From: a virus
IMG/VR virus record: IMGVR_UViG_3300024255_000011
Coordinates: 44,851 to 108,850 of that record
Reading direction: 5' to 3' (one strand)
Length of the DNA stretch: 64,000 nucleotides
The notes below the pieces were generated by a model. That model was not told where the DNA came from. It was given only the letters and a program-made list of their open reading frames with translations, and searched no databases. Both the position numbers and the translations under genes were made by a program. Shown piece after piece: positions 6,301 to 63,777 of this stretch. Position 1 is the stretch's first letter. Each line of letters opens with the position of its first letter.

Positions 6301-9300
6301 TGGGATGGGAGGCCAAGACTTCGTATTATCACTTTCATCCTCAGCCCATTGTTGCATTTGGGCCCAGTTATTTTTGTTATCGTCTTTGATGTACCATATC
6401 TGATACGTACCACCTGATGAATTGAAGTCTGTATTCTTTTCAATAGTGTAGTAGGTTTCTGCCTTGACAGAATGTGTATTGAGACCTTTATAAAAATGGG
6501 GATCTGCTACAGATGGGAAGGTGTCCTTGCCCGATGAGTAGTATGCTGGCCCACTATAGGGCATCTCAGTCAGTGCCTCAAACTTGTGGTTGGTGGGTTC
6601 ACCACTCTTACTCCAACTGTCTGGTCCTCTTTCAGAAGCATCGAAGTCAAATGCACCAAAGACAATGGTGTCATTTTCTGCAGTGAAATCAAAGTGAGAC
6701 AATTGTCTGTTTACATATCTACCAGCAACCCAATCTCTAAAGTTTGATGCATCAGGCTTCAACTGTTTGATTTTATTTGAACTCCACATACGCATCTCAT
6801 GAGGAAGATGGAGTTTATAATCATCAGGTTTGTAGATGTTATTATTGTATACATCATTTTGAAGTTTAGTGATCCTATACCTTCTACCTTTCCTGATGTT
6901 TGGTTCATCGTTCTTTTCGCCTAGAACAAAAGTATCACCATAGTAGTAATCATTTTGTCCACCAGCAGAATGTGTTGGGTCTTCACCCCTCTCAATGTTA
7001 GGATACGCGTAGTAGTCAGTTACGTGCGCTCCTGGTTGGAATCCAGGGTTTGGAAGGTGTCCCTCCTGATCATACCCAGCCCAGTAAGCGGGACCTTGGA
7101 GCTCCTCAAGAGGCTCCTCTTTCCAGTAGACTCTAAGGTTTTCTCCTCTTGGATTCCATCCAGTTAGACCTGTACCTCCTTCTGATACTCTCCTTGCTCC
7201 AGTATGCCATGCACCTGATACTACCACACTCCAATTGTAGTCAATAATTTCTGGGAAGGTGAAATAAATTGCATTATCCTCACCATTGAAACTTCTATTA
7301 TTGCGTTGGTGCCAGGCCCATCTATCTTCAACAGGAACATCCTGGTTACCACAAACACCCATCATCCTAAAGTCTTTATTACCTGGTACGTTTAGGTCTC
7401 TTGGTGCTTGACCAAGAAGGAAAACGTGCATGTAGTTGGGGTTTGGTTTTTCAAGAGTAGGGTCAGCGGATGTCCATATCTTATACCTCTTACCTGGTTG
7501 CCATTGTACAGCAGTGCCTTCGTCAGTTGGTACCGCACCATTCAGAGGGTTAACCCAATGATTATTCTTAAGTTGATCAGTTGTTACGAGTGAGTACTTA
7601 TTTGGATATGTCGCATCATTTTCCCAGTCAATCCAGTACTGAGACATATCATTCGCATCTTTTTTGACCTCTCTGTACAATTCCAAGTAAAGAGGTTCAC
7701 CTTTTTTAGACCACTGTTCCTCAGATTTGCCAGCAGCATATACCTTATATTGAATATATTCTGATTGACAGAAGATGGTAACTACCTGCTCATCGTTAAG
7801 CCCTGATCTCCATACAAACTCCTCCATCTGGAATTCTTGAGCATCATTCTGAGACAGACCCTCCCTCTTAATGAATCTAAAGACAATATCAACGTTTGGT
7901 GTTCTGGCAGTTTTCTTAAATGCATATAGAATGCGTTGATTGGCGGGAGGTGGATTCTTAACGTCTATGATATCATCAGAGTTAATGTCAAATACACGTT
8001 CATATTGTTTTTTGGTTTGATCACTTTCATATAATTGACCCTCTAATTCTGACTGTGTTTGTCCGTCTAACCTTAGGATCTCTTTCATCTCTTGTGTGAG
8101 ATGTATCATTGGTTTGTCGTACCTTGACCAGTTAGGTTCTTTGGGGTTATTGCTGCTGTAAACTTCTTCGGAAGCCCAGAATCCACAACCTGTAACATCA
8201 GGCACTTCAGTGATTTCTACATCAATCCCTTCACCAAATCTACTCCAATATTCATTAATGGGTCTGTCTACTAGGGGATTGCCCTTGTCATCATCTGTTT
8301 GGTCATAACGGAATGCACCAAAGAATAGGTAGTCTCCTTGAGCTTCAACCTCAATTGTTTTTGAAGCCCCTGAGTGTTTTGGTCTCAGAAGCAAAGAGTT
8401 ATCATCTTCGTAGTGGTAAAACTTTCTGTTGGGATCACTACCAATTTCTTTATTTCCGAAACTAGGATCTTCGTAGTAATTAGGTTGAATACATCTATCA
8501 TCTGTCCCCCAAATTATTCTATGGGTGTAGATCATGTTATCCCCAGGTGTGATATGGTATTTTCTACCTTTCCTTACCCTAATTGAGTTGTATGTCTCAT
8601 TGTAATCATTCAAAGGGAAGTTATAATATGCACTATTGAAGTCTGGATATCCTCTAAATCCCTTTCTGACATCAGTAACTGATCCAAAATCTCCAAATGC
8701 CCAGTAAGCAGGACCTTTTCTCAAGTCTCTGTTGCCCCTCGCACCACCCATGTGCTCAATTGATACCTCTGGGGCTTGATTTACATGGTCACTTGTACTG
8801 ATAGACACTGGCTCACCATTATTTTTCCAGTCTGCCTTAACACGGTTCGTGTTTCTGGCATGAAAGATCATATGACTAGAAGGAGGTGTGACAACAAACC
8901 CATTGTAATCATTCTTAAGTATAGTTCCACCGTAAATGAAGTTTACATGATCATCTGGGAGATCTTTTTCTGGGAAGTTGTCAACATCAAGTCCGTGATT
9001 TGTCTCAAGTACAAAGTAAATGTCATAATCATACTTGGTTCTAGTGTCTAGTTCACCAGTATTAACATCACCTGAGTACGCAGAAACTTTTAATCTTTCG
9101 CCTTCTTCTACACGCACATTATTTGGTCTCTGACCAAAGAGACCATCAAAATCTTCGCCAGGCAGATATCTATTAAAATGATTCAGTGGTGTTTGCCACA
9201 CATCATCATGGAAATTGGGTCTTTCTCTGTTGATATGGAGCTCACCCCAGTATCCTGGACCATGAATCCATTTTGCTCTGTCAATTTTTTCTGTAATCGT

Positions 9301-43100: not shown

Positions 43101-46100
43101 TGTACAACAATCTCAGAAACTGAACCAGATAATGTATCTGAGATCTCAACTTCTAATTCATCCTTAGTGGATGTCAGATATATGTTCCTGTATCTTTCAA
43201 CATCATCATAATTGAATATCAGTTTTGTCTCATCATAAGAACTTGCTGCATCATAAACAACAGTGTTGATAGGAACAAGTGATTCATTGATTTCTACACT
43301 GACCTGTTGTGATAATGGTCTGTTACAGAAGGTAGGACCAATGATATATGGATATTCAGGTTCACCTTGATATGTTGTTGTAACAAAGTACGCTCTTATT
43401 CCATCAGGGTACAATTCCTGTGGGAAGTCAGGTGTGTTACAGATTACTGAGTTACATTCATCCAGAAGTCCTGGATATTGTCCATCAATCTTATCTGGTA
43501 ATCTTGCATAAGCAAGATACTCCTTTCCAGATGGATTTGTCTTGATTCTCTCTGGAATCTCTGTATCAATATACTTTCTTTGTAAAAGTTTTTGTATTGC
43601 TGCATCTGGGTCATATGTGTAATCCTCAATGAAAGTACCCATATAATAGGTTGACTCATCAGGAGGAAGTGTTCCAACTGTATCAAAGTTGCCACCACCA
43701 GCAATAAGTTCAGATCTGTCTTCTGCTAACACATAAGAACTTCTGTAATGGACATATCCATCAGAACTGTCATGTTTGTTCGCATAACCATAAGATCCAT
43801 AAATTGGGTTACCATCATACGCCCAACCTAAGATTGGGGAGTGATTATTGGGCACTTCCTCTAAGAAGTCAGCAAGTTTGTCAGGTTTGATAATATATCC
43901 ATAATCTGACCTTACATCTTCTTTATTCTCAAAAACAAACCCATTGTTGATATCATAGTTCCAATTTCTTGTTTCCACAATTTGGTAGTGTCTATCAAAG
44001 TGATAAAACTGAATAAATCCCTCAACTTCTGCATTTTCGCCTTTTGAGGTAATTACACAATAAGTGGAATCTGGATCATAGTCAATTCCAGGATAAACTA
44101 CAGAAACACTGGTAATTTCACCATCTGCAATTTCACATGAGAAAACTGCACCTTTTCCTCTACCAGATGCATCAACTGCACTGATAGTAGGTACATCATT
44201 GTAAAACCGACCTCCACCTGCTAAATTCGCTTTTGTAATCCTTCCAAACTTGTCATAATTGAATAATATGTCTGCACCCTCTCCTCCACTGATTCTGACT
44301 TCAGGATTAGAGGTGTAATTTGTTTTTGTCTCATTTGTGATTCCAACAACTGTTCCCTCATCCAAAATAATGGTTTCATCCACTTTTTGGCCATCAATCA
44401 CCAAAGTGGGATTCACATAACCAGTTCCACCCGCTAAAATCTTATAATGAGTGATTGAACCTTGATAAACCTTGTGTGGGTCATTACAACTGTAAGCAGG
44501 AACACCATCAACAAACAAACCAATGGCATCTGTGCCTTTAGTCAGAATTTGCTCATTTGGAAGGATTCTTTCTCTTCTGGGAATGACATGGAGTTGGTTT
44601 TTGCCAGTTAACTCAGGACCAACTGATAAATCAGATTTTTTGCCTTCAATCACCAAACTAAAGGTATCTGAGTCACTCATAAGATCCTCAAACTTCTCTG
44701 TACCTAAAAGTTCAATGTCCCTGTTACTAAATGGTCCAATAGTGAACATTGGGAGGTTAGAGGATGATGCAAACACATATTTGTCATCAAAATAAATGCC
44801 ACTTATTCCATAAGTGTAATTACTAACAAAATTGACAAATCTTATCCTGTCTGTTTGTGTTGCAAGAAAATCATCATAGTTCTCAATAAGAGAACCCATA
44901 ATTGGTTCCCTGTAGTCAATTCTACCTGGTCCATTAGGAGTTACAATATCAGAGGTTGTATGTAACAACCCTGGATCATGAACCTTAACAGATTTTGCTA
45001 ATCCAAGTGGGAATGACCTTGAGCAGTGAGTTTGTCCATCAGAATCAGTAATATACCCTTCATAATAGTAAGGACCCATAACAGTGGTCCCCTCATGATG
45101 AGGAGCATCAGATCCAATGTACCCACGCTTACAATCAAAGAACTGATTGAAGGACTTTGACCCATAATAGATACCTTCACCCCCAACCACAACAACACCA
45201 CTGTCAGGGAACCCCAGAGTGGTCTCTACAGTGATTGTGTAAACATCCACCCCATCATCATCTGTTCCATACATGAACAGTGGTCTTGTTAACTTGGTTT
45301 TGGGGTTAGCAACAGTTTCCCCATTGATATTGTCCTTCTCAACATAAATTTCATATTGCACTTCATCTTCATAAGAATAATGTGACGCATAATCAACAAT
45401 AATGGATCCATAGATCTTATTATCATTATATGACTTCAGTTGTAACTGAGATCCAATCAATTTGTCTGGATTGGTGGCAGGAAACTCCTGATTAGACAAT
45501 GGGAAGGATACTGGTACTAATCTCAGTAACATTCCTTCATACCAAGTGGAATCAGAAGGAATAATCATCCTGTCTCCAGGATATGACACTTCTATGTCAT
45601 TCTCAGCATAAAGAATCTTGAATAACGCTTTGATACCAAGTTTAGTGCCCTTGGACTGAAAGAAATCTCTAATATTTTCTAATACAGTAGATCTGTCAAT
45701 TAGTTTAGAAACCTTCTTAGCATCAAACCCCTCCGCAAAGGTTTTATGGATGATATCCAAGAAAGCAGACATGAAAAGTCCACTTAAGTTGTAAACTTTG
45801 GCACCAGGGAAGTGACTTGCTGCTTCAGTGGTTTTATACACTGATTCAGTAATAAGATTTCCCAATAATGTTGTTCCAGACGCCCCTCTTTGGAGATCAT
45901 AAAAAATATTACCTGTTCTGTAACGATATAAGATGATTTCATCATCAATCATCAAAATTCCATCTTTTTCTGGAAATCCTTCTCCAGAAAAGAGTACCAG
46001 TTTCTCATCTTCATAACTGGCAAGTATTTGTCTGGACTTATCTAACTGGATTCTACTTTTATTGGTGTCAATTGAGTTATCCAACTCAGTATTGATGAGT

Positions 46101-54687: not shown

Positions 54688-55140
54688 TCAGAAACCTGCT
54701 AAGTGATAAGCGTCAGTCAAGTCGCCTGTTGGGTCAAAGTAGTCAGGTGCAGTTTCTAACGCTGCCTGGATAATAACAGTTTTAGCAACCCAACGCGTGT
54801 CGCCTGGGAAGTTAGGGTCTAGTGCCCTAAGTTGTCCTAACGCTGCGTTGATGGAAGCAACTGTGTGTGGGGTGTTGGGGTTCAGTTCCAGATAAGCGCG
54901 TTTGGCGGTTGCAACCCTGGCGCCAGCGGTGACATAACAACCAACCAGGTCAACTGCCTCAGACATAAGATAAGGGTGCCTGGTGGTAGCGGCGGTGGTG
55001 ACCTGGGTGTAGGTGTCCCGCTGACGCTGACTAAGGCGTGCCAGTTGTGCTGGGGTGACATTGGAACCCAAGACCAACTGAATGGGGCGACCTTTTATTG
55101 GGTGAACAGTGACAGTCCTGGTTGCGGTGGTGGTGGTCAT
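54688..55140 (-). CDS. Early hypothetical protein, ~150 aa
   Basis: Start MTTTTATR follows cassette element A. Terminator-like hairpin downstream. Confidence 0.75.
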   Translation of the reverse strand: MTTTTATRTVTVHPIKGRPIQLVLGSNVTPAQLARLSQRQRDTYTQVTTAATTRHPYLMSEAVDLVGCYVTAGARVATAKRAYLELNPNTPHTVASINAALGQLRALDPNFPGDTRWVAKTVIIQAALETAPDYFDPTGDLTDAYHLAGF

Positions 55141-55221
55141 GAGTGGTGTTCCCTTGTTTACCTCTTTATTATAACCCCTCCAAGGGGGTGCCGCCAACCC
55201 CTTGTTGCAAACTGTTGCACT
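55141..55221 (-). promoter_or_regulatory. Early cassette element A
   Basis: Direct repeat on + (GTTGCAAA ct GTTGCACT, 55204-55221). TATAAT on - at 55168-55173. Leader GAGGTAAACAAGGG. Confidence 0.8.
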
Positions 55222-55376
55222 CAGTTGACCTGGTTGCAACCACGGGCTGTGCCACCTGGATAACGGGCCTCAGCGAACTGCCTTGCCTGTGGTGGGTTGT
55301 TAGCTTCAATCAACACTTGTTGTGCTGGGTTGCCATTACTGAATGTGATTGTGGTCTTGTAAGTTTTGTTAGCCAT
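55221..55376 (-). CDS. Early small protein, 51 aa (not in ORF track)
   Basis: MANKTYKTTITFSNG...IEANNPPQARQFAEARYPGG...; CA-rich leader. Confidence 0.65.
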   Translation of the reverse strand: MANKTYKTTITFSNGNPAQQVLIEANNPPQARQFAEARYPGGTARGCNQVN

Positions 55377-55410
55377 GGTGTTTGTTAGTTAGTGTGGTGT
55401 GTGTTAGTGT

Positions 55411-55563
55411 TCAGTCTGTGGCGACTAAGATGTAAGAGTGTACGTTACCCCATAGTTTACGATACTGAGTCAACAATGCCACTGCTCGTTGATACTCACA
55501 TGGTGGGTAAACTGTATCGATGAACTCTCCTTCGTTGTTGTAACGTAACATCAGTTTGAACAT
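55411..55563 (-). CDS. Early small protein, 50 aa (not in ORF track)
   Basis: MFKLMLRYNNEGEF...; AAGGAG Shine-Dalgarno upstream. Confidence 0.65.
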   Translation of the reverse strand: MFKLMLRYNNEGEFIDTVYPPCEYQRAVALLTQYRKLWGNVHSYILVATD

Positions 55564-55592
55564 TGGTGATCTCCTTAGTGTGTGTGTTAGTG

Positions 55593-55769
55593 TTACTGGG
55601 CTGGGAAGTTCTCACAGACAGCGTCACATAAACGATTTGTTAACTCAGTTATTAGTCGATCACTTACAATACAACTGAGTTCCATTTCCACAGTGTTAGT
55701 GATGTCCTCCATTAGTTGTTCACGTGACATCAACATTTCAAGTCGTGGGTTGGTTGTGAGTGTGGTCAT
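55593..55769 (-). CDS. Early small protein, 58 aa
   Basis: MLMSREQLMEDI...LCDAVC.NFP motif recalled from cyanophage early regions. Follows element B. Confidence 0.75.
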   Translation of the reverse strand: MTTLTTNPRLEMLMSREQLMEDITNTVEMELSCIVSDRLITELTNRLCDAVCENFPAQ

Positions 55770-55852
55770 TGGGTTGCTCCCTTGGTTGTTTACCTCTTTA
55801 TTATAACCCATCAGAGCCCCCTTGCGGGGGTTTTGTTGTAAAGGTTAGCAGT
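55770..55852 (-). promoter_or_regulatory. Early cassette element B
   Basis: GTTGTAAA gg TTAGCAGT (55835-55852); CCCCC-GCAA-GGGGG hairpin; TATAAT at 55800-55805. Confidence 0.85.
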
Positions 55853-56254
55853 TCAGTCTTCGAAGTTATCTAACTCAGTGTTAAGGCAGTCTACCCAAAC
55901 CTCATGCATCTTATCAGGTAGGTTATATTCTTCTAAGTCAAAGTCACTACCTGAAATATTGAGACACCTGTGATATGTCTCATAAGTCATAATAACCTTA
56001 TCCTCTAACGCCCTACGAATAGTCTCCTCCCTATCACAGAAACTCTCATAATACAAGTCCCTCAAGTCTTCAACCAGACCGTCTGAATAAGAGTCGTCGT
56101 CCAGTCCGGTAACCAAGTGTCCCAACTCAGTGCCACCGTCAACCTGCAACATATGATATAATGCCCGGAGGTTATCATATGTAAACTCCTTCACTGCTTC
56201 ATAAGTCCTATCAGCATACCACTCATCCTTATAAACTCCATAAGTCTTAGTCAT
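55853..56254 (-). CDS. Early acidic protein, paralog of the next gene
   Basis: EW..D..Y..F..L..TG..D.Y..G..E.L.D.Y shared with 56344-56727. Follows element C. Confidence 0.8.
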   Translation of the reverse strand: MTKTYGVYKDEWYADRTYEAVKEFTYDNLRALYHMLQVDGGTELGHLVTGLDDDSYSDGLVEDLRDLYYESFCDREETIRRALEDKVIMTYETYHRCLNISGSDFDLEEYNLPDKMHEVWVDCLNTELDNFED

Positions 56255-56332
56255 AAGGTCTCCCCTTTAGTACTCTTATAGTATAACACCCCACAGGGGT
56301 GCTGCGGGGGTTTTGTTGTAACCCTTAACATA
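56255..56332 (-). promoter_or_regulatory. Early cassette element C
   Basis: GTTGTAAC cc TTAACATA (56315-56332); 8-bp spacer hairpin; TATACT at 56280-56285. Confidence 0.85.
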
Positions 56333-56343
56333 AGGGTTGCTTA

Positions 56344-56727
56344 TCAGTCCTCCAACATACCACTCAAAGTCTCATAACAAGAGGACTGCCACTCTTCCTG
56401 TGCTTCCTTCTCAGTCAAGTGGGTGTTCCATAAACGAAACACAGTGTAACAAGTCAGAAACTCCTCAGTCTTCATACAACGAATAAAAGCGTTCCCTACC
56501 TTATAGTCCTCCTCGTCATTGTAAGACAAGTCATCATACATATCCTTTAACTGTTCACCACCGCCTTCAGCGTAGTCATCCTCTGTCATACCAGTGATAA
56601 ACTCAGAGAACTCGTCACCTTCCATACCCAAAGTGTTCATAATATTCAACAACTCTTCTAGACTAAACCGCTTAGAATAGTAGTTGTCGTTAGTCCACTC
56701 CCTGTGAATAGTCAGATACTCAGTCAT
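56344..56727 (-). CDS. Early acidic protein, 127 aa
   Basis: Start MTEYLT follows element D. Paralog of 55853-56254. Confidence 0.8.
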   Translation of the reverse strand: MTEYLTIHREWTNDNYYSKRFSLEELLNIMNTLGMEGDEFSEFITGMTEDDYAEGGGEQLKDMYDDLSYNDEEDYKVGNAFIRCMKTEEFLTCYTVFRLWNTHLTEKEAQEEWQSSCYETLSGMLED

Positions 56728-56807
56728 TGGGTTCTCTCCCTTGGTTACCTGTGTATCATAACGCCCCACTGCCTCCAGCGGGGGGTTTTGTTGCAAAGGT
56801 TCACAGA
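56728..56807 (-). promoter_or_regulatory. Early cassette element D
   Basis: GTTGCAAA gg TTCACAGA (56790-56807); 8-bp hairpin; TATGAT at 56755-56760. Confidence 0.85.
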
Positions 56808-56977
56808 GCCGGGAGGGTCACCATTTCAAAGCCTCCGTCCATCAACGTCGCCAGTTGACGGGCCTCGCGATCCAGGAGGGCCACCATGTCATAATTGCCC
56901 TGTTGTTGATGGATAACCATTTGATCTGTCATGTCCTCCAAGCGACCCATGATCAGGTTGATGTTATCATTAGACAT
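56801..56977 (-). CDS. Early small protein, 58 aa (not in ORF track)
   Basis: MSNDNINLIMGRLEDM...; follows element E with AAAGGAG Shine-Dalgarno. Confidence 0.7.
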   Translation of the reverse strand: MSNDNINLIMGRLEDMTDQMVIHQQQGNYDMVALLDREARQLATLMDGGFEMVTLPAL

Positions 56978-57055
56978 TGGAAGCTCCTTTGGTTACTTGT
57001 GTATCATAACACCCCATGGGGGTGAATGGTGGGTTTTGTTGCAATCCTTAGCACT
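56978..57055 (-). promoter_or_regulatory. Early cassette element E
   Basis: GTTGCAAT cc TTAGCACT (57038-57055); TATGAT at 57003-57008. Confidence 0.85.
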
Positions 57056-57079
57056 CAGGGTTTCTGGGTGCTCTGGGTG

Positions 57080-57295
57080 TTAGACTGGGGTCACTGTGAT
57101 GGCCAGGATCAGCTCACATGCCAGATCAGTCTGACTGTCCTCTGATACAACTGGGATCTCATCCCCAACAAACTCTGTTGCCAAATCCATCATCAACTCA
57201 TGCATCCTCTCATCTCCTGCACAGAACTCAGCAAACTCTGAACTGAACCCTGTTGCCAAACGTCTGATGGCTTCGTCGTACTTGTTCATGGTCAT
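57080..57295 (-). CDS. Early small protein, 71 aa
   Basis: Start MTMNKY follows element F. Confidence 0.75.
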   Translation of the reverse strand: MTMNKYDEAIRRLATGFSSEFAEFCAGDERMHELMMDLATEFVGDEIPVVSEDSQTDLACELILAITVTPV

Positions 57296-57375
57296 GGGGT
57301 CTCTCCCTTGGTTTACTCTTGTAGTATGACACACTCTGGGGTCCAATGGGGTGTTTTGTTGCAACCCTTAACATA
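57296..57375 (-). promoter_or_regulatory. Early cassette element F
   Basis: GTTGCAAC cc TTAACATA (57358-57375); CATACT at 57323-57328. Confidence 0.8.
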
Positions 57376-57408
57376 AGGGCTGCTTATCAGTCAGATAAGG
57401 GTTACTTA

Positions 57409-57546
57409 TCAGTTACAACTGCGGCGTCCTCTGAGTGACATTTTGCGCTTAGACTTAACTGCTGATGGTAACACAATGTGCTTGATGTCCACAGAGGGAT
57501 TCTCAGTTGCAATGGCGATGATGATGTCCTTCAGTTGCTTGTCCAA
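57409..57546 (-). CDS. Early small basic protein, 45 aa, TTG start (not in ORF track)
   Basis: (M)DKQLKDIIIAIATENPSVDIKHIVLPSAVKSKRK...; follows element G with AGGA Shine-Dalgarno. Confidence 0.55.
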   Translation of the reverse strand: MDKQLKDIIIAIATENPSVDIKHIVLPSAVKSKRKMSLRGRRSCN

Positions 57547-57623
57547 GGTGTCCTGTCTTGTTTACCCTCTTATCATAACGCCTATGCGGGTCTTTAGGGG
57601 TCTTTGTTGCACAATGAAACATC
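57547..57623 (-). promoter_or_regulatory. Early cassette element G (degenerate)
   Basis: GTTGCACA at GAAACATC (57606-57623); TATGAT at 57572-57577. Confidence 0.7.
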
Positions 57624-57672
57624 AGTGATGGTGATGGGTCTGGGAGAAAATGATAAAATCTTCTGAAGACCC

Positions 57673-57701
57673 TTGACTTCTTATGTAAAGTCTGCCAAGA
57701 T
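57673..57701 (+). promoter_or_regulatory. Putative antisense sigma70-type promoter
   Basis: TTGACT-17 bp-CAAGAT in a ~300-bp gap with no convincing ORF. Confidence 0.4.
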
Positions 57702-57934
57702 GCTGTAAGGACCTGGATTTAAGGAGTTAAATGGGACATTAGGGCATCATTATAATTCACATGATACCATTTACAAATCATTTAATAAACACATTGTGTA
57801 TCAACATAACATTAACACATTGAACACTGGTGGGTATTAGTAGTGTTAAATCCTTGCCATTAACCTCTGTAACCCTCTGTAAGACGTCTTTATCGTGTAT
57901 GCATGTCTTCATACGTCTTTGTCGGTCTTTGTCA

Positions 57935-58147
57935 TTATGTGAGTAACTTACTCATTGAGATAGTGGTTAAGAATCCAACCATGATTACAATGTCCCATGC
58001 TCTTGTTCTTATAAAGAATGGCACACTGATTAGATCAGCAGTTAAATGAATCCCTGCTCCTAGTTTAGTGTTAACATGTAAGACAATGAAGTATCCAATG
58101 ATAACAAGACCACTACCTATTATCCTACCTAACTCATCAATCCTCAT
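57935..58147 (-). CDS. Small membrane protein, 70 aa
   Basis: Two to three hydrophobic stretches. Confidence 0.7.
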   Translation of the reverse strand: MRIDELGRIIGSGLVIIGYFIVLHVNTKLGAGIHLTADLISVPFFIRTRAWDIVIMVGFLTTISMSKLLT

Positions 58148-58346
58148 CCTTCTTTACTCTATCAATCATGTTATCCAATGAATCTAATAACTCATCAGTG
58201 CGTGTTATTGAATCTAACTCATGGATAAGACGAGTGATTGCTGTCAATGTGTTAGGTCTCTCTGACCTTGACGCTTTGAACAATGCATTCCTAAGTGCAC
58301 CTGACGCTTCATCTAATGACTCTTGTACTGATTGTGATAATGACAT
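58137..58346 (-). CDS. Conserved cyanophage-type hypothetical protein, 69 aa
   Basis: MSLS.SV.ESL.EA...LRNAL..A.R.E.P motif; AAAGGA Shine-Dalgarno. Confidence 0.75.
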   Translation of the reverse strand: MSLSQSVQESLDEASGALRNALFKASRSERPNTLTAITRLIHELDSITRTDELLDSLDNMIDRVKKDED

Positions 58347-58351
58347 AATGA

Positions 58352-58549
58352 TTAATCCTTTGTTGGGTTGTACTCCATGTTGACATCCTCTGCCAATAAC
58401 TTCATAGTAAGATGCCCATCCAGTTGATACCTTGTGTACATCAACTCCTGTTTAGCAGGCACTGGTGTTGTGTGATAAGCTCTCACTAACCTCATTAGAT
58501 AAGGATGCATTTGATCATTGATTTCTGTTGGCAATGGTTGTTGGTTCAT
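58352..58549 (-). CDS. Hypothetical protein, ~65 aa
   Basis: TGTGT-TATAAT immediately upstream. Start codon uncertain. Confidence 0.55.
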   Translation of the reverse strand: MNQQPLPTEINDQMHPYLMRLVRAYHTTPVPAKQELMYTRYQLDGHLTMKLLAEDVNMEYNPTKD

Positions 58550-58570
58550 AACCATATTATAACACACACC

Positions 58571-58789
58571 TCAGTTGATTTGCTCTGTTACTACATCATA
58601 CACCTTGTTCATTCTGTTTAACTGCTCCTCACAATACTCCACAGAATAATGGCTCTTCTCTCCCTCTGCTGACATCATCACCTTACCCTGGGCATATTGC
58701 TTCTGCTTCTGCCAATACATTACACCTGAATGCACAGCATGTAATAACTCATACAATGATTCTTCTGTTTCAAACATTGGACACCTCAT
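58571..58789 (-). CDS. Hypothetical protein
   Basis: Part of an overlapping-gene operon. Start may be MFETEES (GAGG Shine-Dalgarno). Confidence 0.65.
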   Translation of the reverse strand: MRCPMFETEESLYELLHAVHSGVMYWQKQKQYAQGKVMMSAEGEKSHYSVEYCEEQLNRMNKVYDVVTEQIN

Positions 58790-58977
58790 TTAATCAGTAA
58801 GTTAAGTAAATGTTTACTCATCTCTCGATAAGCCTTATCATTTAACTCTCCTATCCGATCATCAAGATACTCATTGATGTACACCTCATAAATCCACCTC
58901 AACTCTCCTCCATGATGTGCTAAAATCCAATCATTGAAATCCTCCTTCATCGTTTCTGCCATTACTTGATAATTCAT
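58786..58977 (-). CDS. Hypothetical protein, 63 aa
   Basis: ATGA overlaps with both neighbours. Confidence 0.65.
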   Translation of the reverse strand: MNYQVMAETMKEDFNDWILAHHGGELRWIYEVYINEYLDDRIGELNDKAYREMSKHLLNLLIK

Positions 58978-59231
58978 ACCTTAACATAAGAACGTGAGGT
59001 GGACTGATACATTTCCGGTGTGATTGAATCATACAAGTCATCTAACTGATCTAACTCATCCTGACGTAATTCATACACATCATTAGTCTCAACAAGAATA
59101 CAATTAGGATCGGTTGAACTCAGTAACTTCCATTGATCATAACCCTGAAACACTCTGGTGAAATACGCCTCTGGGTTTCTTACCTCACAGTCTGAATAAA
59201 CCCTGGTCCTGAGTTTGATTTGTTGAGTCAT
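58974..59231 (-). CDS. Early hypothetical protein, 85 aa
   Basis: Start MTQQIK follows element H. Confidence 0.7.
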   Translation of the reverse strand: MTQQIKLRTRVYSDCEVRNPEAYFTRVFQGYDQWKLLSSTDPNCILVETNDVYELRQDELDQLDDLYDSITPEMYQSTSRSYVKV

Positions 59232-59308
59232 GGTCTCTCCTTTGGTTACCTCCATATTATAACCCACTGGAGTGACCAGTGGGCGGTTTTGTTGTAATTC
59301 GTTACCTA
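59232..59308 (-). promoter_or_regulatory. Early cassette element H
   Basis: GTTGTAAT tc GTTACCTA (59291-59308); perfect CCCACTGG/CCAGTGGG hairpin; TATAAT at 59256-59261. Confidence 0.85.
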
Positions 59309-59640
59309 ACAGTTGGAACGTTAAACCTGCCAGGGGCAACTGATTCCATAATGTCAAACAACTGCCTGCTACGGTGTTGACGACGAATAGCCTGGTTTAC
59401 TGATGGCTCAGCGATTTGAAACTGATACGATAACGCCTCAACATAAGCGTCATAACAATCATCTGGGTCAGTGAGATCATAGTTTACATGATCAGTGCCA
59501 TCGTCCATGAGTACTCCAACCTCACCGTTGTTAACATTAACCCATGTTCCCTGCATGTTATCCTGATAGAAATACCTGCCAGGCATTTCCTCGACATAAC
59601 CATTCTGAACTAACAGATCTGTTAATTGTTGAACGTTCAT
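59302..59640 (-). CDS. Early hypothetical protein, ~112 aa
   Basis: Start MNVQQL follows element I. Confidence 0.7.
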   Translation of the reverse strand: MNVQQLTDLLVQNGYVEEMPGRYFYQDNMQGTWVNVNNGEVGVLMDDGTDHVNYDLTDPDDCYDAYVEALSYQFQIAEPSVNQAIRRQHRSRQLFDIMESVAPGRFNVPTVR

Positions 59641-59719
59641 TTGGTTTCCCATTTGTTTACCTCCATATTATAAGGCGTTATGGTCCTGATGGGTGGGTTT
59701 TGTTGTAAACCGTTACAAT
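59641..59719 (-). promoter_or_regulatory. Early cassette element I
   Basis: GTTGTAAA cc GTTACAAT (59702-59719); TATAAT at 59667-59672. Confidence 0.85.
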
Positions 59720-59916
59720 CAATATTCGATTCCTGCCTCATACTCACTACCAAACATCTGTTCTATAAGAGATTCATTCTCAAACAACAATCCATCCTTA
59801 TAATCACGATTCACTTGCTTGATGCTCTCCTCCACTGCCAGTTGCTCTGTCCTCAACCACGCTAATCTGGTGCGTAAGTCCTGTAGTTGTTTGTTACGTT
59901 CAGTGATTGTCATCAT
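59719..59916 (-). CDS. Small coiled-coil early protein
   Basis: Heptad pattern; ATGA overlap with the upstream gene. Confidence 0.7.
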   Translation of the reverse strand: MMTITERNKQLQDLRTRLAWLRTEQLAVEESIKQVNRDYKDGLLFENESLIEQMFGSEYEAGIEY

Positions 59917-60086
59917 TTACCCCATGTGTAAGACGCCATAACATTCTGGAATGGTCCTGATTGCTGAAGAACCTCAACTAACCCATACTCCTCACTTAGT
60001 GAGTAACACAGGTCATATGCCTTATCCAAATCATAACATGTGGTTGACTCATGTGGTGCTGAGTAACACTTAACATAATAACTCAT
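59913..60086 (-). CDS. Early small protein, 57 aa (not in ORF track)
   Basis: MSYYVKCYSAPHESTTCYDLDKAYDLCYSLSEEYG...; AGGAGG Shine-Dalgarno. Confidence 0.75.
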   Translation of the reverse strand: MSYYVKCYSAPHESTTCYDLDKAYDLCYSLSEEYGLVEVLQQSGPFQNVMASYTWGK

Positions 60087-60115
60087 TGAAAATCCTCCTG
60101 GTGTGTTGGTGTGTA

Positions 60116-60394
60116 TCAGTCTTCGATAAGTTCTGCCATTGCCTCGTTCACTTCAACCTGGTTCACTCGCTCATCATCCCATCGAACACCATCACCATCT
60201 GTGGGTTGTCCCATGTCTCTCATCTCATCGATAAAGAACTGATAAGGGTTTAACAGGTCAACTCGTGCTGCTTGTTGTGCTGTCTTATAAAAACCATAGT
60301 CGTTCATCATCCACAGAACAACTGACCATGTCTCACGGTTGGTCCAACCATTGTAGTCTGTGTCTGTGAGTTGTGTCTGATAGGTGGTGGTCAT
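60116..60394 (-). CDS. Conserved phage early protein (YNGW.N.ETW family)
   Basis: YNGWTNRETW.V.LW..ND motif. Follows element J. Confidence 0.8.
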   Translation of the reverse strand: MTTTYQTQLTDTDYNGWTNRETWSVVLWMMNDYGFYKTAQQAARVDLLNPYQFFIDEMRDMGQPTDGDGVRWDDERVNQVEVNEAMAELIED

Positions 60395-60473
60395 TGGGTG
60401 TCTCCCTTGTTTACCTCCATATCATAACGCCTCAAAGGGTCGCTGCGGGGGTTCTGTTGCAAACCGTTACAGG
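60395..60473 (-). promoter_or_regulatory. Early cassette element J
   Basis: GTTGCAAA cc GTTACAGG (60456-60473); TATGAT at 60421-60426. Confidence 0.85.
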
Positions 60474-60875
60474 TCAGACCATGAACGCCTCCAGACCAGT
60501 CGCCTCACCGAACGAATAATCATATAACAACGCATCTTGACACACAATGTGTGGATGAGTGGTGTCAATACCTAACCTGTTACACATTTCAACGTGATTA
60601 TCCTCCATTAATTCTACACCATACAACATATTATCATTGATGTGTGATAACTCATGGTATTTCGATAATTCTGTCTGCAGGGTCAACAGGAAGTTCCCTG
60701 ACCCTGCTGAGGGATCAAGGAATGTGGAAGAGGGATCTTGCAACGTTGATTGTGGTATCTCTGATACCATCTGGTGACACAGTTCCATGGGTGTGAATAC
60801 CTCACCTGTTACCTTGATACGATCATCACTACGCTCAATAGATGATGTGGTTGTGTTGTGTGTGTTCTTATTCAT
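60474..60875 (-). CDS. DNA adenine methyltransferase, SAM-binding half only, 133 aa
   Basis: GEVFTP (motif X), LDPSAGSGNFL (motif I), LYGVE and IVC.DAL. No NPPY/DPPY motif. Confidence 0.8.
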   Translation of the reverse strand: MNKNTHNTTTSSIERSDDRIKVTGEVFTPMELCHQMVSEIPQSTLQDPSSTFLDPSAGSGNFLLTLQTELSKYHELSHINDNMLYGVELMEDNHVEMCNRLGIDTTHPHIVCQDALLYDYSFGEATGLEAFMV

Positions 60876-61587
60876 AGTTGTTCATGTAAATAGAGATCAA
60901 CTCATTCTTACCAAGAGATGGCACTTGAGTAATCAACGCCTCTTCTCTAAACTGTGGTTCAAGGGCAACTAAACGCTCTTGAACCTTTTTACTACATTTA
61001 ATTAAATGATGTCCAGTGTCAGCGTAATGTTCAAAGTTCTCTGTCTTGACTCTGCCTCCTGGTCCTCCTCCTTTGAGACCAATGAATACATTAGCGTCAT
61101 GTCTCTCATTATAACTAACGAACTCAAGATCAGGATGAGTGGTGAATGTAGAGATCTTATCCCTAAGAGTATCAGTCTTGATCCAACGCTGACGAACAGT
61201 CTTGATGGTCTTACCAAATGTAGTATCGGGCAATGTGACATCCTCAATACAGATAAGATCAAGTCTTACCTTGTTCTGAGATGATGGTTTGCGAATGGAG
61301 ACAGGCATAACCAGTCGAATGTCATCAGACAAGTCAGCACATTTGTTCAGGAATCGGATGGCAAGGTTGCCTCCTGACCCATAAGGTGGGTTACCAATTA
61401 CAACGTCGAATTTCATACCATCAAATTCATCAAGGTTATCTGTAACAGTCACTCCTCTTATTTTAGCAGAATAATGTCCTTTTGTTGAGTCTTCCCATAC
61501 ATAAATGTCTGATGGTGAGATGCCATAAGTTTGGATAAGAGAAAGAGTGGTGTGACCGCTTGGGTCGGCAATAATAAGATATTTCAT
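60868..61587 (-). CDS. DNA adenine methyltransferase, catalytic/TRD half (Eco57I-like), 239 aa
   Basis: KFDVVIGNPPY (motif IV), FL and VMP motifs. Only a degenerate IADPSG at the motif-I position. Confidence 0.8.
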   Translation of the reverse strand: MKYLIIADPSGHTTLSLIQTYGISPSDIYVWEDSTKGHYSAKIRGVTVTDNLDEFDGMKFDVVIGNPPYGSGGNLAIRFLNKCADLSDDIRLVMPVSIRKPSSQNKVRLDLICIEDVTLPDTTFGKTIKTVRQRWIKTDTLRDKISTFTTHPDLEFVSYNERHDANVFIGLKGGGPGGRVKTENFEHYADTGHHLIKCSKKVQERLVALEPQFREEALITQVPSLGKNELISIYMNNYE

Positions 61588-61640
61588 GGGGTTGTCCCTT
61601 GGTTCAATCCTAGATTAACACGGAGGCTCCTCCTTGTCAA
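61588..61640 (-). promoter_or_regulatory. Canonical sigma70-type promoter for the methyltransferase genes
   Basis: TTGACA (61635-61640), 17-bp spacer, TAATCT (61612-61617). Leader AACCAAGGGA resembles the cassette leaders. Confidence 0.7.
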
Positions 61641-63700
61641 GCAATTAGATCAGAGAGGACAAAGGATGGCATGGTCTGCTGGCTCCCTGTGGAGACCATA
61701 AGACCCTCAAGGGTCTCAGGGGTTGATCCCATGGATGAGACTGTTGTGGAGACCTGTGAGACCCTCCTGGAGAGGGTCTGAGAGGACAGGACACCAGAGG
61801 AGAGGAGAGAGGAGAGGAGACCAGTGTCACCAGTGACAGGAGTGTAAGATTCACAATTCACAACATCCCGGATTGTGGTGATGACATTACCCTTACTGAT
61901 CTCATTAAAGATAACCTCAGGTGTCAGTGACAAATAATACTGAACAGTCTTGATCTTCTGTTGTAACTCTGTCTTCTCTGCTGGCGTCTTATCTGATGTC
62001 CTAACCCTTGCTCCATTACCATTATTTGCCTGATCATTGATCAACAGACTCTTGGTCATTTCCTTGTCAAAGTTCTGGAAGTTGTTGAAGTCAACAGATA
62101 ACAATGATTCAAGATCCATTCCCTGAACACCACCAGTCATAAGACGAACAACAGTGCCAGGGTCAGTGGCAAGAATGTCATTAACCTGTGACTGATCCAT
62201 TGTATCAAATCCTGCATCCCACTCATAAATGGGAACAAACTCAGTGAACTCATACTCAGAGAGTGTGGGGTTGAGATCAGCAGCAAGGGTGAATGTCTCA
62301 CGCAATGACTCAAGAGCACGAGTGGGAACAAAGTCAATCACACGCCAGTTGTGATCACCACTGCCAGCCCTGAAGGCAAACTGTGACCAGAACTGAATTG
62401 ACTTACCCTCACGACAGTTGATAACAGTGTCCCAGAGTGATTGGGTCACACCCAACACATTTGCTGAGAATGTGAGACACAATGACCTGTTATGTTCACG
62501 AACAAACTGATCAATGGAGTCAGCGTCTGATTGTGTGTCACCAGTGACAACCTTTGCTGGGATAATGTGATCAACCAACTGCTGGAACAAGTGACACGCC
62601 TGAACTGAAGGGAGACACATATAAATGTGATTAGACTGATACAACAACCTGTTAGATGGTTTGATCTCTCGGTTAGTGTCAAAGAACTTGGCGATAAACT
62701 CCTTGACCAGGAACTCATCAACAAACTGATCGTTATCAACCAGGAACAGATTCTTCATTGCGTCAGGGTCATCACCATAAACCTCTGAATACTTGTCTGA
62801 CTGATACTTGGCAAGAACAACAGACATTGTGGGGCGGTCAATGATACCTGCCTCAACGTCAATCTGTTCTTGGAAGTAGTCATAAACAAACCTGTTTGAC
62901 TCAGTGGTGTCCCACAACTGATCATAAGCAGTTCCACTTACCTTGAGACATGGAGTGGTGGAGAGTGACTCACGAACCCTGATGAACTGAGATGACTTAT
63001 CACCAATGTGTGCCTCGTCATAAACCAACAGGTCAATGGTGGGCAGGTTGTCTAACTTACGAACCAGACCCTGAACAGTTGACCACAACACAATCTGTTT
63101 GTTGGTTGACTGCCAGTAGGTCAGTTGATCCTGCCAGTTCTTATCAGACAGTGACACAGTAACCATGTTCTCAAACTTATCAAATGTCTTGACATCATTA
63201 ATCCATGATTGTGACGGTGACTTGAAACGAGAGACAATTAAACTGATGTTGTGACGCTTATCAACAATATGTGACAACACCATAACTGATTTACCTGCTC
63301 GACACTTGGCGGCGAGTAAGAACTCAGTGTAGTCAGTGCGTGACTTATCAACAAACTCTTGCTGATAAGGCTTAAGAGTCAGTTGAGTGCGAGTGTTGTT
63401 ATAATATGTGAAGAACTTATATTCAATCATGTTCTCGATAACATCGAGTGTGGTGGTGTGACTGAACCACTCAGCGTATTTACGAATGCCTGGTTGTGTC
63501 TTCAACCAGGCGTGGATCTCAGTGTCAACGATATCAACGTCTTCCCACCAATGGATAAGGTTGAGTTCCTCGCCCCTGGCCTTCAGATAATTATGGAACT
63601 TAGCCCAGTCTCCATCCTTGTGTCGCTCTTCAAATGACCTGGTGGTCTGACCAATCCCAAAGACCTTGTGGTCTTGACTGGCGATAAAATAAATGTTCAT
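61637..63700 (-). CDS. GIY-YIG/T5orf172-like nuclease fused to a superfamily-2 (res-type) helicase, ~687 aa
   Basis: Nuclease-like IY...IGQTTR..EER...IH..L...EWF. Helicase motifs LKPYQ, AKCRAGKS (Walker A), DEAH, SGT and Q..FR. Start MNIYF follows element L. Confidence 0.8.
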   Translation of the reverse strand: MNIYFIASQDHKVFGIGQTTRSFEERHKDGDWAKFHNYLKARGEELNLIHWWEDVDIVDTEIHAWLKTQPGIRKYAEWFSHTTTLDVIENMIEYKFFTYYNNTRTQLTLKPYQQEFVDKSRTDYTEFLLAAKCRAGKSVMVLSHIVDKRHNISLIVSRFKSPSQSWINDVKTFDKFENMVTVSLSDKNWQDQLTYWQSTNKQIVLWSTVQGLVRKLDNLPTIDLLVYDEAHIGDKSSQFIRVRESLSTTPCLKVSGTAYDQLWDTTESNRFVYDYFQEQIDVEAGIIDRPTMSVVLAKYQSDKYSEVYGDDPDAMKNLFLVDNDQFVDEFLVKEFIAKFFDTNREIKPSNRLLYQSNHIYMCLPSVQACHLFQQLVDHIIPAKVVTGDTQSDADSIDQFVREHNRSLCLTFSANVLGVTQSLWDTVINCREGKSIQFWSQFAFRAGSGDHNWRVIDFVPTRALESLRETFTLAADLNPTLSEYEFTEFVPIYEWDAGFDTMDQSQVNDILATDPGTVVRLMTGGVQGMDLESLLSVDFNNFQNFDKEMTKSLLINDQANNGNGARVRTSDKTPAEKTELQQKIKTVQYYLSLTPEVIFNEISKGNVITTIRDVVNCESYTPVTGDTGLLSSLLSSGVLSSQTLSRRVSQVSTTVSSMGSTPETLEGLMVSTGSQQTMPSFVLSDLIA

Positions 63701-63777
63701 GGGAGTGTCCTTGGTTACCTCTGTATCATAACACCACACAGGGTCACCGCGTGGGTTCTGTTGTAAACCGTTACAAT
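63701..63777 (-). promoter_or_regulatory. Early cassette element L
   Basis: GTTGTAAA cc GTTACAAT (63760-63777); spacer hairpin with G-T pairs; TATGAT at 63725-63730. Confidence 0.85.

Follow-up and report, generated by a model that had tools for sequence, protein, structure and literature searches.

Several T4-type phages carry a repeated cassette called the promoter-early stem-loop (PeSL), which is described for RB49/phi1, T4/PST and KVP40/nt-1 (Arbiol 2010, PMC2839356; Comeau 2014, PMC4122927). The phages with PeSLs include coliphages, a Yersinia phage, and vibriophages (PMC4122927), and the stem-loops of nt-1 have the form A3-4G3-loop-C3T3-4 (PMC4122927). On the side of the cyanobacterial hosts, two regulatory sites are relevant to the present work. 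The first, HLR1, has the consensus (G/T)TTACA(T/A)(T/A)-N2-(G/T)TTACA(T/A)(T/A), activates when its centre lies about 51 nucleotides (nt) upstream of the transcription start (range -66 to -45, peak -51), and has previously been reported in cyanophage genomes (PMC6525291). It is bound in an activating position by the regulator RpaB in photosystem I promoters, as reported by Seino 2009 and Takahashi 2010, both cited in Riediger 2019 (PMC6525291). The second, CGRE1, is a palindrome located before yfr2 genes and bound by the GntR regulator PMM1637/PlmA (Lambrecht 2018, PMC6191309). This work concerns a stretch of 64,000 nt, hereafter the window, which spans positions 44,851 to 108,850 of the virus record IMGVR_UViG_3300024255_000011 and is the right-hand part of a single virus contig of 108,850 bp (about 62% complete by a tool estimate). 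Its subject is a set of eleven promoter-like cassettes in this window, whose upstream element resembles both HLR1 and the promoters of the host psaAB genes.

The explanation that we favor, at a probability of roughly 0.4, is that these are local PeSL-like early cassettes in which an activator slot is occupied by an HLR1/psaAB-like block. Judged by its proteins, the phage that carries them belongs to the T4-like cyanomyoviruses and is a relative of Synechococcus phage ACG-2014f: the match of its baseplate wedge protein to the gp6 family has a value of 1e-165, and a ResIII-like protein of 688 amino acids (aa) shares 66.6% identity with an ACG-2014f protein and 44% with one from S-CAM7. All genes of the window lie on the minus strand. 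Those behind the cassettes are small ORFans and a restriction-modification-like cluster (ResIII, Eco57I-like, and N6-methylase domains), a content that is typical of the early hyperplastic region in T4-type phages.

The cassettes, of about 80 bp each, all lie on the minus (coding) strand within 55138-63777. An earlier sequence-only reading of this DNA had described them as eleven early promoters devoid of a -35 box; each was found where that reading had placed it, and the scan of the rest of the genome that it had proposed gave no further cassette in the 108,850-bp contig. The core TTRCAACAAAA, with at most one mismatch, occurs 17 times in the window versus 5.1 expected, a number reached by none of 100 shuffles; ten of these matches fall in the cassette region, and the eleventh cassette reads GTGCAACAAAG. 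Along the coding strand, a loose distal block (TG-t-n-AA-s-s) comes first, and after it come TTRCAAC and AAAAC, a spacer rich in GC, GT with the -10 hexamer (TATGAT, TATAAT, TATACT or CATACT, with an extended TGn in four copies), and a conserved leader, AGGTAAMCAAGGGAG, which extends to the start codon, located 23-32 nt downstream of the hexamer. Nine copies have 30 bp between TTRCAA and the -10 hexamer, the copy at 57613 has 29 bp and that at 55210 has 31 bp, exactly as the sequence-only reading had it. Its statement that no -35 box is present holds for ten copies, in which a consensus scan was negative, and fails for the copy at 55210, where a -35-like hexamer (TTGGCG) stands at 18 bp.

The upstream block had been described as a direct repeat of two 8-nt units separated by 2 nt on the antisense strand. 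Such a repeat exists, but it is weak and uneven: the halves share only 4 of 8 bases on average, the proximal unit GTTGYAAW being near-invariant and the distal one much looser. In three copies the block comes close to the palindrome TGTAAC-GG-TTTACA, and conservation continues past the repeat into CAAAAC. Downstream of the block, seven of the 11 GC-rich spacers fold into hairpins more stable than those of shuffled sequences (z from -2.1 to -6.4), with the T-run on the antisense strand, where terminator-like sites were called. The cassettes at 56321 and 57364 also share a perfect palindrome, CCCTTA-TG-TTAAGGG (56322-56340 and 57365-57383), which extends over the distal block and the last part of the upstream gene and constitutes a second hairpin in both. 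The eleven elements are very probably real promoter cassettes. The layout fits promoters that work without a -35 box: if transcription starts at the predicted position, 7 nt after the -10 hexamer, the conserved 18-nt block spans about -59 to -42 with its centre at -50.5, at the place expected of an activator and inside the range in which HLR1 activates.

The likeness to HLR1 proposed by the sequence-only reading is above chance. The best HLR1 match of the cassettes averages 12.8 of 16 positions, two copies reaching 14 and seven reaching 13. HLR1 outscores every control in two sets of permuted direct-repeat motifs matched in composition, one of 600 and one of 300. For a random 46-mer of genome composition, the probability of matching 13 or more positions is 0.02, and that of matching 14 or more is 0.002. 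The cassettes of ACG-2014f reach 10.6 of 16, which is near the permuted background (2% of the permuted motifs attain 10.6). Two other host sites were considered and rejected. The Pho box consists of 8-nt units YTTAAYYW with 3-nt spacers; the comparison with it, also suggested by the earlier reading, was negative, in that the cyanobacterial Pho box scored 9.9 of 16, below the mean of the permuted motifs. As for an NtcA site, the block inspected by eye contains GTA-N6-TAC and not GTA-N8-TAC.

The second line of evidence comes from the hosts. The psaAB promoters were chosen for comparison since RpaB is reported to activate photosystem I promoters in model cyanobacteria. In all the Synechococcus and Cyanobium genomes examined, the psaA promoter consists of GATTGAACCTTTGTAAC, 29-31 GC-rich bases, and TAT(A/G)CT, with no -35 box, and the pattern AACCTTTGTAAC-N(27-32)-TAYRCT matches exactly once in each of 42 genomes out of the 121 of the family, and its reversed control matches in none. 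The small AT-rich genomes of Prochlorococcus size have TAGAACATTTGTTAC instead, mostly 29 nt before a TATGCT-like -10 box (19 of 21 pooled upstream regions); the spacer of this type holds a further conserved GTAGTAAC. Among the marine and related picocyanobacteria searched, the psaAB element is single-copy and highly conserved, a result on the host side that may be of use alone.

On the antisense strand, the proximal unit of the host psaA element is GTTACAAA, a perfect HLR1 half-site, which matches the phage GTTGYAAA in strand and place. The element and the phage block are similar, share the same orientation, stand 29-31 nt from the -10 box, and belong to promoters that lack a -35 box. Compared in register with the Synechococcus psaA element, the cassette at 56760 is identical at 13 of 18 positions and that at 55805 at 10 of 18, while a random host 18-mer attains 13 or more identities with any cassette at a probability of 2.4e-4; the mean identity between host psaA and phage is highest at register 0 to +1. 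HLR1-like conserved elements also occur in the promoters of psaF and psaD; they end 37 and 40 nt upstream of the respective -10 boxes, roughly one turn of the helix beyond the place of the psaA element and the phage block. They match only 10-11 of the 16 HLR1 positions, and the phage block therefore fits the consensus better than they do.

The third line comes from a relative. ACG-2014f has 22 cassettes of the same layout, and in all 22 of them the element GTGACAGT-N6-A(C/G)TGGCAC ends 30 or 31 bp before TATACT. Host genomes were reached via the psbA gene of ACG-2014f, and yfr2 promoters were taken from three marine Synechococcus genomes. Several of these yfr2 (Cyano-1) small-RNA gene promoters contain a 21-nt palindrome with arms CAACTGGCAC, which fits the description of CGRE1. 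The arms of the ACG-2014f dyad, (G/A)AA(C/G)TGGCAC, are nearly identical to these host arms; they point outward with a 6-nt gap in ACG-2014f and face each other with a 1-nt gap in the host palindrome. Since the slot at the same 30-31 bp holds, in this relative, a copy of the site of a host regulator, an activator slot is plausible.

The content of the slot differs by phage. The ResIII-like gene and the homologs of the genes 58974-59231, 57080-57295 and 56344-56727 stand behind dyad cassettes in ACG-2014f and behind TTRCAAC cassettes here, and the genes common to both phages are partly reordered. The dyad consensus (arms GTGMCAGT and ACTGKCAC in an 8-6-8 arrangement) scores 8.5 of 16 here versus 14.6 of 16 in ACG-2014f. 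CGRE1 arms were also sought in the present cassettes and rejected: the arm matrices gave at best 5 of 17-18 bits (z 1.8), the dyad consensus was at background, and the contig has no intergenic copy of a CGRE1-type dyad, its arm-like 8-mers being single and none of them lying in a cassette block or forming a dyad before a -10 box. In S-CAM7, the slot holds CTGACCACTG or GTGTCCACTG, another version of the upstream element. Pattern searches of IMG/VR gave no other contig with the TTRCAAC cassette; their matches lay in unrelated contexts, apart from one dyad-type promoter before a single gene, which recurs in several contigs.

Taken together, a mechanism can be proposed. The host RNA polymerase with its primary sigma factor would start about 7 nt after the -10 box, and the block at about -59 to -42 would replace the -35 box as the docking site of a DNA-binding activator that recruits the polymerase. 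We consider it probable that the cassettes depend on an activator of this kind. This activator would be the host response regulator RpaB or whatever drives psaAB; the block is HLR1-like and psaAB-like in sequence, orientation and register, which makes one of these the leading single candidate, and the assignment to RpaB itself is tentative. The spacer hairpin with its flanking A-run would probably terminate transcription, mainly in the antisense direction, and insulate neighboring cassettes from each other, and the conserved leader would provide the ribosome-binding site. The repeated cassettes may also act as seams at which related phages differ in gene content and order, with small genes gained, lost and reordered between relatives in the hyperplastic region that carries them. 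The fullest version of this scenario, which we put forward with real doubt, is that the slot was switched in this lineage from a CGRE1-type dyad, i.e., a PlmA site, to a photosystem-I-type HLR1, so that RpaB would drive the early genes and couple them to the light and redox state of the host, and that different T4-like cyanophage lineages copy different activator-dependent promoters of their hosts.

Several observations weigh against this explanation. Core position 4 of the proximal half-site, which is A in HLR1, is G in all eleven copies, and the next position is T instead of C in five of them. The distal half is weakly conserved, and the best-conserved stretch runs on into CAAAAC, outside what HLR1 explains. 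In the hosts, the probable HLR1 sites found before an hli gene and further genes for small membrane proteins carry A at core position 4, with a single exception, GTTGCACA, the third unit of a triple repeat. Of three host genomes, two have no more matches to 14 of 16 HLR1 positions than to the reversed control, and in the third the excess is only marginal, which makes the consensus one of low specificity. Five host genomes show no enrichment of the exact phage block; TTRCAACAAAAC and TGTAACNNKTTRCAAC occur there no more often than their reversed controls, and the exact matches inspected have no correctly spaced -10 box. All but one of the eleven cassettes agree with the psaA element at only 7-10 of 18 positions, and a matrix built from the phage family ranks that element only within the top 0.1% of host positions. 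Furthermore, we infer the role of the marine psaA element as an RpaB site by analogy with Synechocystis and S. elongatus. One metatranscriptome run (7% of the sampled words, five contigs, possibly including DNA) showed no transcription starts, and one of its five contigs, 59106-59266, crosses a predicted start. Finally, a -10 box alone is said to suffice for most promoters of picocyanobacteria, so that an activator may be unnecessary.

This last point leads to the alternative that survives best, which is nonetheless unlikely: the host polymerase would use the -10 box alone, perhaps with the A-run as an UP-like contact for its alpha subunit. In that case the uniformity of the block would stem mainly from recombination between cassettes (concerted evolution) and from a role in a two-way terminator, the likeness to HLR1 and psaA being partly due to chance. 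The A-run CAAAA indeed lies at about -42 to -38, where the proximal UP subsites of E. coli promoters are found. Seven of the 11 spacers fold, terminator-like sites are called on the antisense strand, and the hairpins, with an A-run before and a T-rich run after, have the same form as the PeSL stem-loops of nt-1 (PMC4122927). The cassettes look homogenised within each genome, with orthologs bearing different types in the two phages, and homology to related populations ends at cassette borders. However, neither ACG-2014f nor S-CAM7 conserves the A-run, no permuted control reaches the HLR1 match, and the 29-31 bp between block and -10 box are kept across genera, and in host psaA, despite unrelated spacers, which points to a geometric constraint.

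The ends of homology just mentioned were located with contigs of related populations from seawater metagenomes, which lose homology at 55174, 56758, 56797, 57611, 59722 and 63773, at cassette borders or no more than a few bases away. These breaks fit a role of the cassettes as seams; single exchange events cannot be reconstructed from these contigs because they are short.

Rather improbable, in our estimate, is that the block binds another sequence-specific protein, either one of the phage, delivered with the DNA or made very early, or another host regulator, such as a divergence-tolerant GntR protein of the PlmA type. If a phage protein made very early were responsible, the cassettes would be delayed-early or middle promoters, for which the MotA middle promoters of T4 offer the precedent of a phage activator that replaces the -35 box. 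Co-evolution of a factor with its site would fit a layout that is fixed while the element varies by lineage (the dyad in ACG-2014f, the S-CAM7 version, and TTRCAAC here), and it would fit the identical deviation of all eleven copies from HLR1. In addition, the antisense distal block reads AAACCGTTAC in three copies, and is identical at 8 of 10 positions to one arm of the host CGRE1. The poor fit of the CGRE1-arm matrices and the background score of the dyad consensus speak against this reading, and no DNA-binding domain was detected among the early-region proteins tested. Moreover, a host factor is the simpler solution for genes that fire on injection, and the in-register likeness to the psaA promoter would be left unexplained. 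It is very improbable that the repeats are not promoters and instead act at the RNA level, as processing sites or translation leaders in one long early transcript, an option favored by the strongly conserved leader and by the RNA-library contig that crosses a predicted start, and countered by near-consensus -10 hexamers at a fixed place in all 11 copies, a layout equal to that of the promoter cassettes of relatives and of host promoters, the lack of any Rfam family match, and the possible presence of DNA in that library.

The individual cassettes and the genes that they precede are collected in Table 1.

Table 1. The eleven cassettes of the window, with their distinguishing features, the genes that follow them, and their relation to HLR1, the host psaA element, or ACG-2014f.
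Cassette	Positions	Strand	Features	Gene that follows	Comparison
1	63701..63777	-	spacer hairpin; TATGAT	ATG of ResIII-like restriction-modification gene (61637-63703)	HLR1 14/16; ACG-2014f ortholog behind dyad-type cassette
2	60392..60473	-		92-aa DUF7249 gene (60116-60394)	HLR1 13/16
3	59650..59719	-	no spacer hairpin	116-aa ORFan (59302-59652)	HLR1 14/16
4	59229..59308	-	strongest hairpin, z -6.4	85-aa gene (58974-59231, phrog_3570)	ACG-2014f ortholog has dyad cassette
5	57544..57624	-	most divergent copy (GTGCAA, 29-bp spacing)	short open reading frame, TTG start	
6	57293..57375	-	-10 box CATACT	71-aa gene (57080-57295, phrog_3298)	
7	56975..57055	-		58-aa gene (56801-56977)	
8	56725..56807	-		127-aa gene (56344-56727)	closest copy to host psaA element, 13/18 in register
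9	56252..56332	-	-10 box TATACT	133-aa ORFan (55853-56254)	
10	55767..55852	-		three small genes (55593-55769, 55411-55563, 55221-55376)	10/18 in register with psaA element
11	55138..55221	-	31-bp spacing; only -35-like box (TTGGCG); halves both GTTGCA, direct identity 6/8	150-aa ORFan (54688-55140)	

Some further features of the region deserve mention. The restriction-modification-like cluster (60474-63703) consists of three genes, encoding a ResIII helicase-like protein of 688 aa, an Eco57I-like protein of 239 aa, and an N6-methylase-like protein of 133 aa, and it also occurs in ACG-2014f, S-CAM7, and 19 IMG/VR contigs. The 133-aa gene follows the large ResIII-like gene here and precedes the large gene in ACG-2014f, and the 3' end of the ResIII-like gene contains a purine-rich simple repeat of the GGAGA type (61780-61826). 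An AT-rich stretch, 57620-57990, has no open reading frame, cassette, tRNA or Rfam match, and the small open reading frames from 57935 to 58977 have no cassettes and a GC fraction of 0.40 versus 0.44-0.45 in the cassette region; the whole stretch 57620-59000 may be a more recent insertion. Outside the early region, at about 8620-8680 of the genome and 36 kb before the window, there is a promoter of a different, host type (TTAACA-17 bp-TGT-TATACT), which adjoins the palindrome AGTTAACT.

Rfam and tRNA scans gave no match, and neither psbA, hli nor phoH has a match in the contig, which is incomplete. A near-identity DNA search of the phage collection returned no close relatives, as did a locus search with a single protein. 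The 19 loci obtained with an alignment query have identities of about 40%, and their repeats are mostly coding.

We know of no T4-like cyanophage in which the switch for the early genes has been worked out. If the explanation favored here is true, with an RpaB-type site in this phage and a PlmA-type site in its relative, early phage transcription would be tied to host regulators of light, redox and nutrient responses, and the choice of the regulator could change during evolution. It would also offer a molecular handle on the light dependence of cyanophage infection.

With regard to described systems, the cassettes belong to a known kind, namely PeSL-like cassettes combined with cyanophage early promoters that have an upstream element at a fixed distance. 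Like PeSLs, they repeat a stem-loop, a promoter, a Shine-Dalgarno sequence and a start codon between small genes of the hyperplastic region, an A-run flanks the stem-loop, and they may coincide with differences in gene content between relatives. In PeSLs, 17 bp separate the sigma-70 -35 and -10 boxes and the stem-loop precedes the -35 box, whereas here the stem-loop occupies the -35 region and a -35-like box is found in one copy only. A functional analogy, and no more than that, links them to the MotA middle promoters of T4, where an activator box stands in for the -35 box beside a retained -10 box; the MotA box is located at -30 and requires the phage proteins MotA and AsiA. To our knowledge, no MotA or AsiA is known from cyanophages, including the T4-like ones.

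The early cassettes of ACG-2014f are similar as well: there, too, each small early-region gene has its own cassette, with no good -35 box, an upstream element at 29-31 bp from a TATAAT-like box, a spacer of high GC content that often forms a hairpin, and a short conserved leader. They differ in the slot, which holds an 8-6-8 dyad with the CGRE1-type arms ACTGGCAC and GTGACAGT in ACG-2014f and the antisense GTTGYAAW-NN-KTWRCA with its 10-bp period here. CGRE1 is the site of a host regulator and precedes a promoter whose only box is the -10 box, and ACG-2014f copies its arms in this slot; the block of the present phage does not match them. HLR1/RpaB promoters resemble the cassettes, whose block can be read as two imperfect 8-nt units placed 2 nt apart with a predicted centre near -50.5, and differ in that the proximal unit of the cassettes has G at core position 4 and the units are only 4 of 8 alike; HLR1/RpaB sites belong to host photosynthesis genes, the cassettes to phage early promoters. 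The novelty of this phage lies in what fills the upstream slot: where its relatives have the yfr2/CGRE1-type dyad, it has a block that resembles HLR1 and the psaAB promoter.

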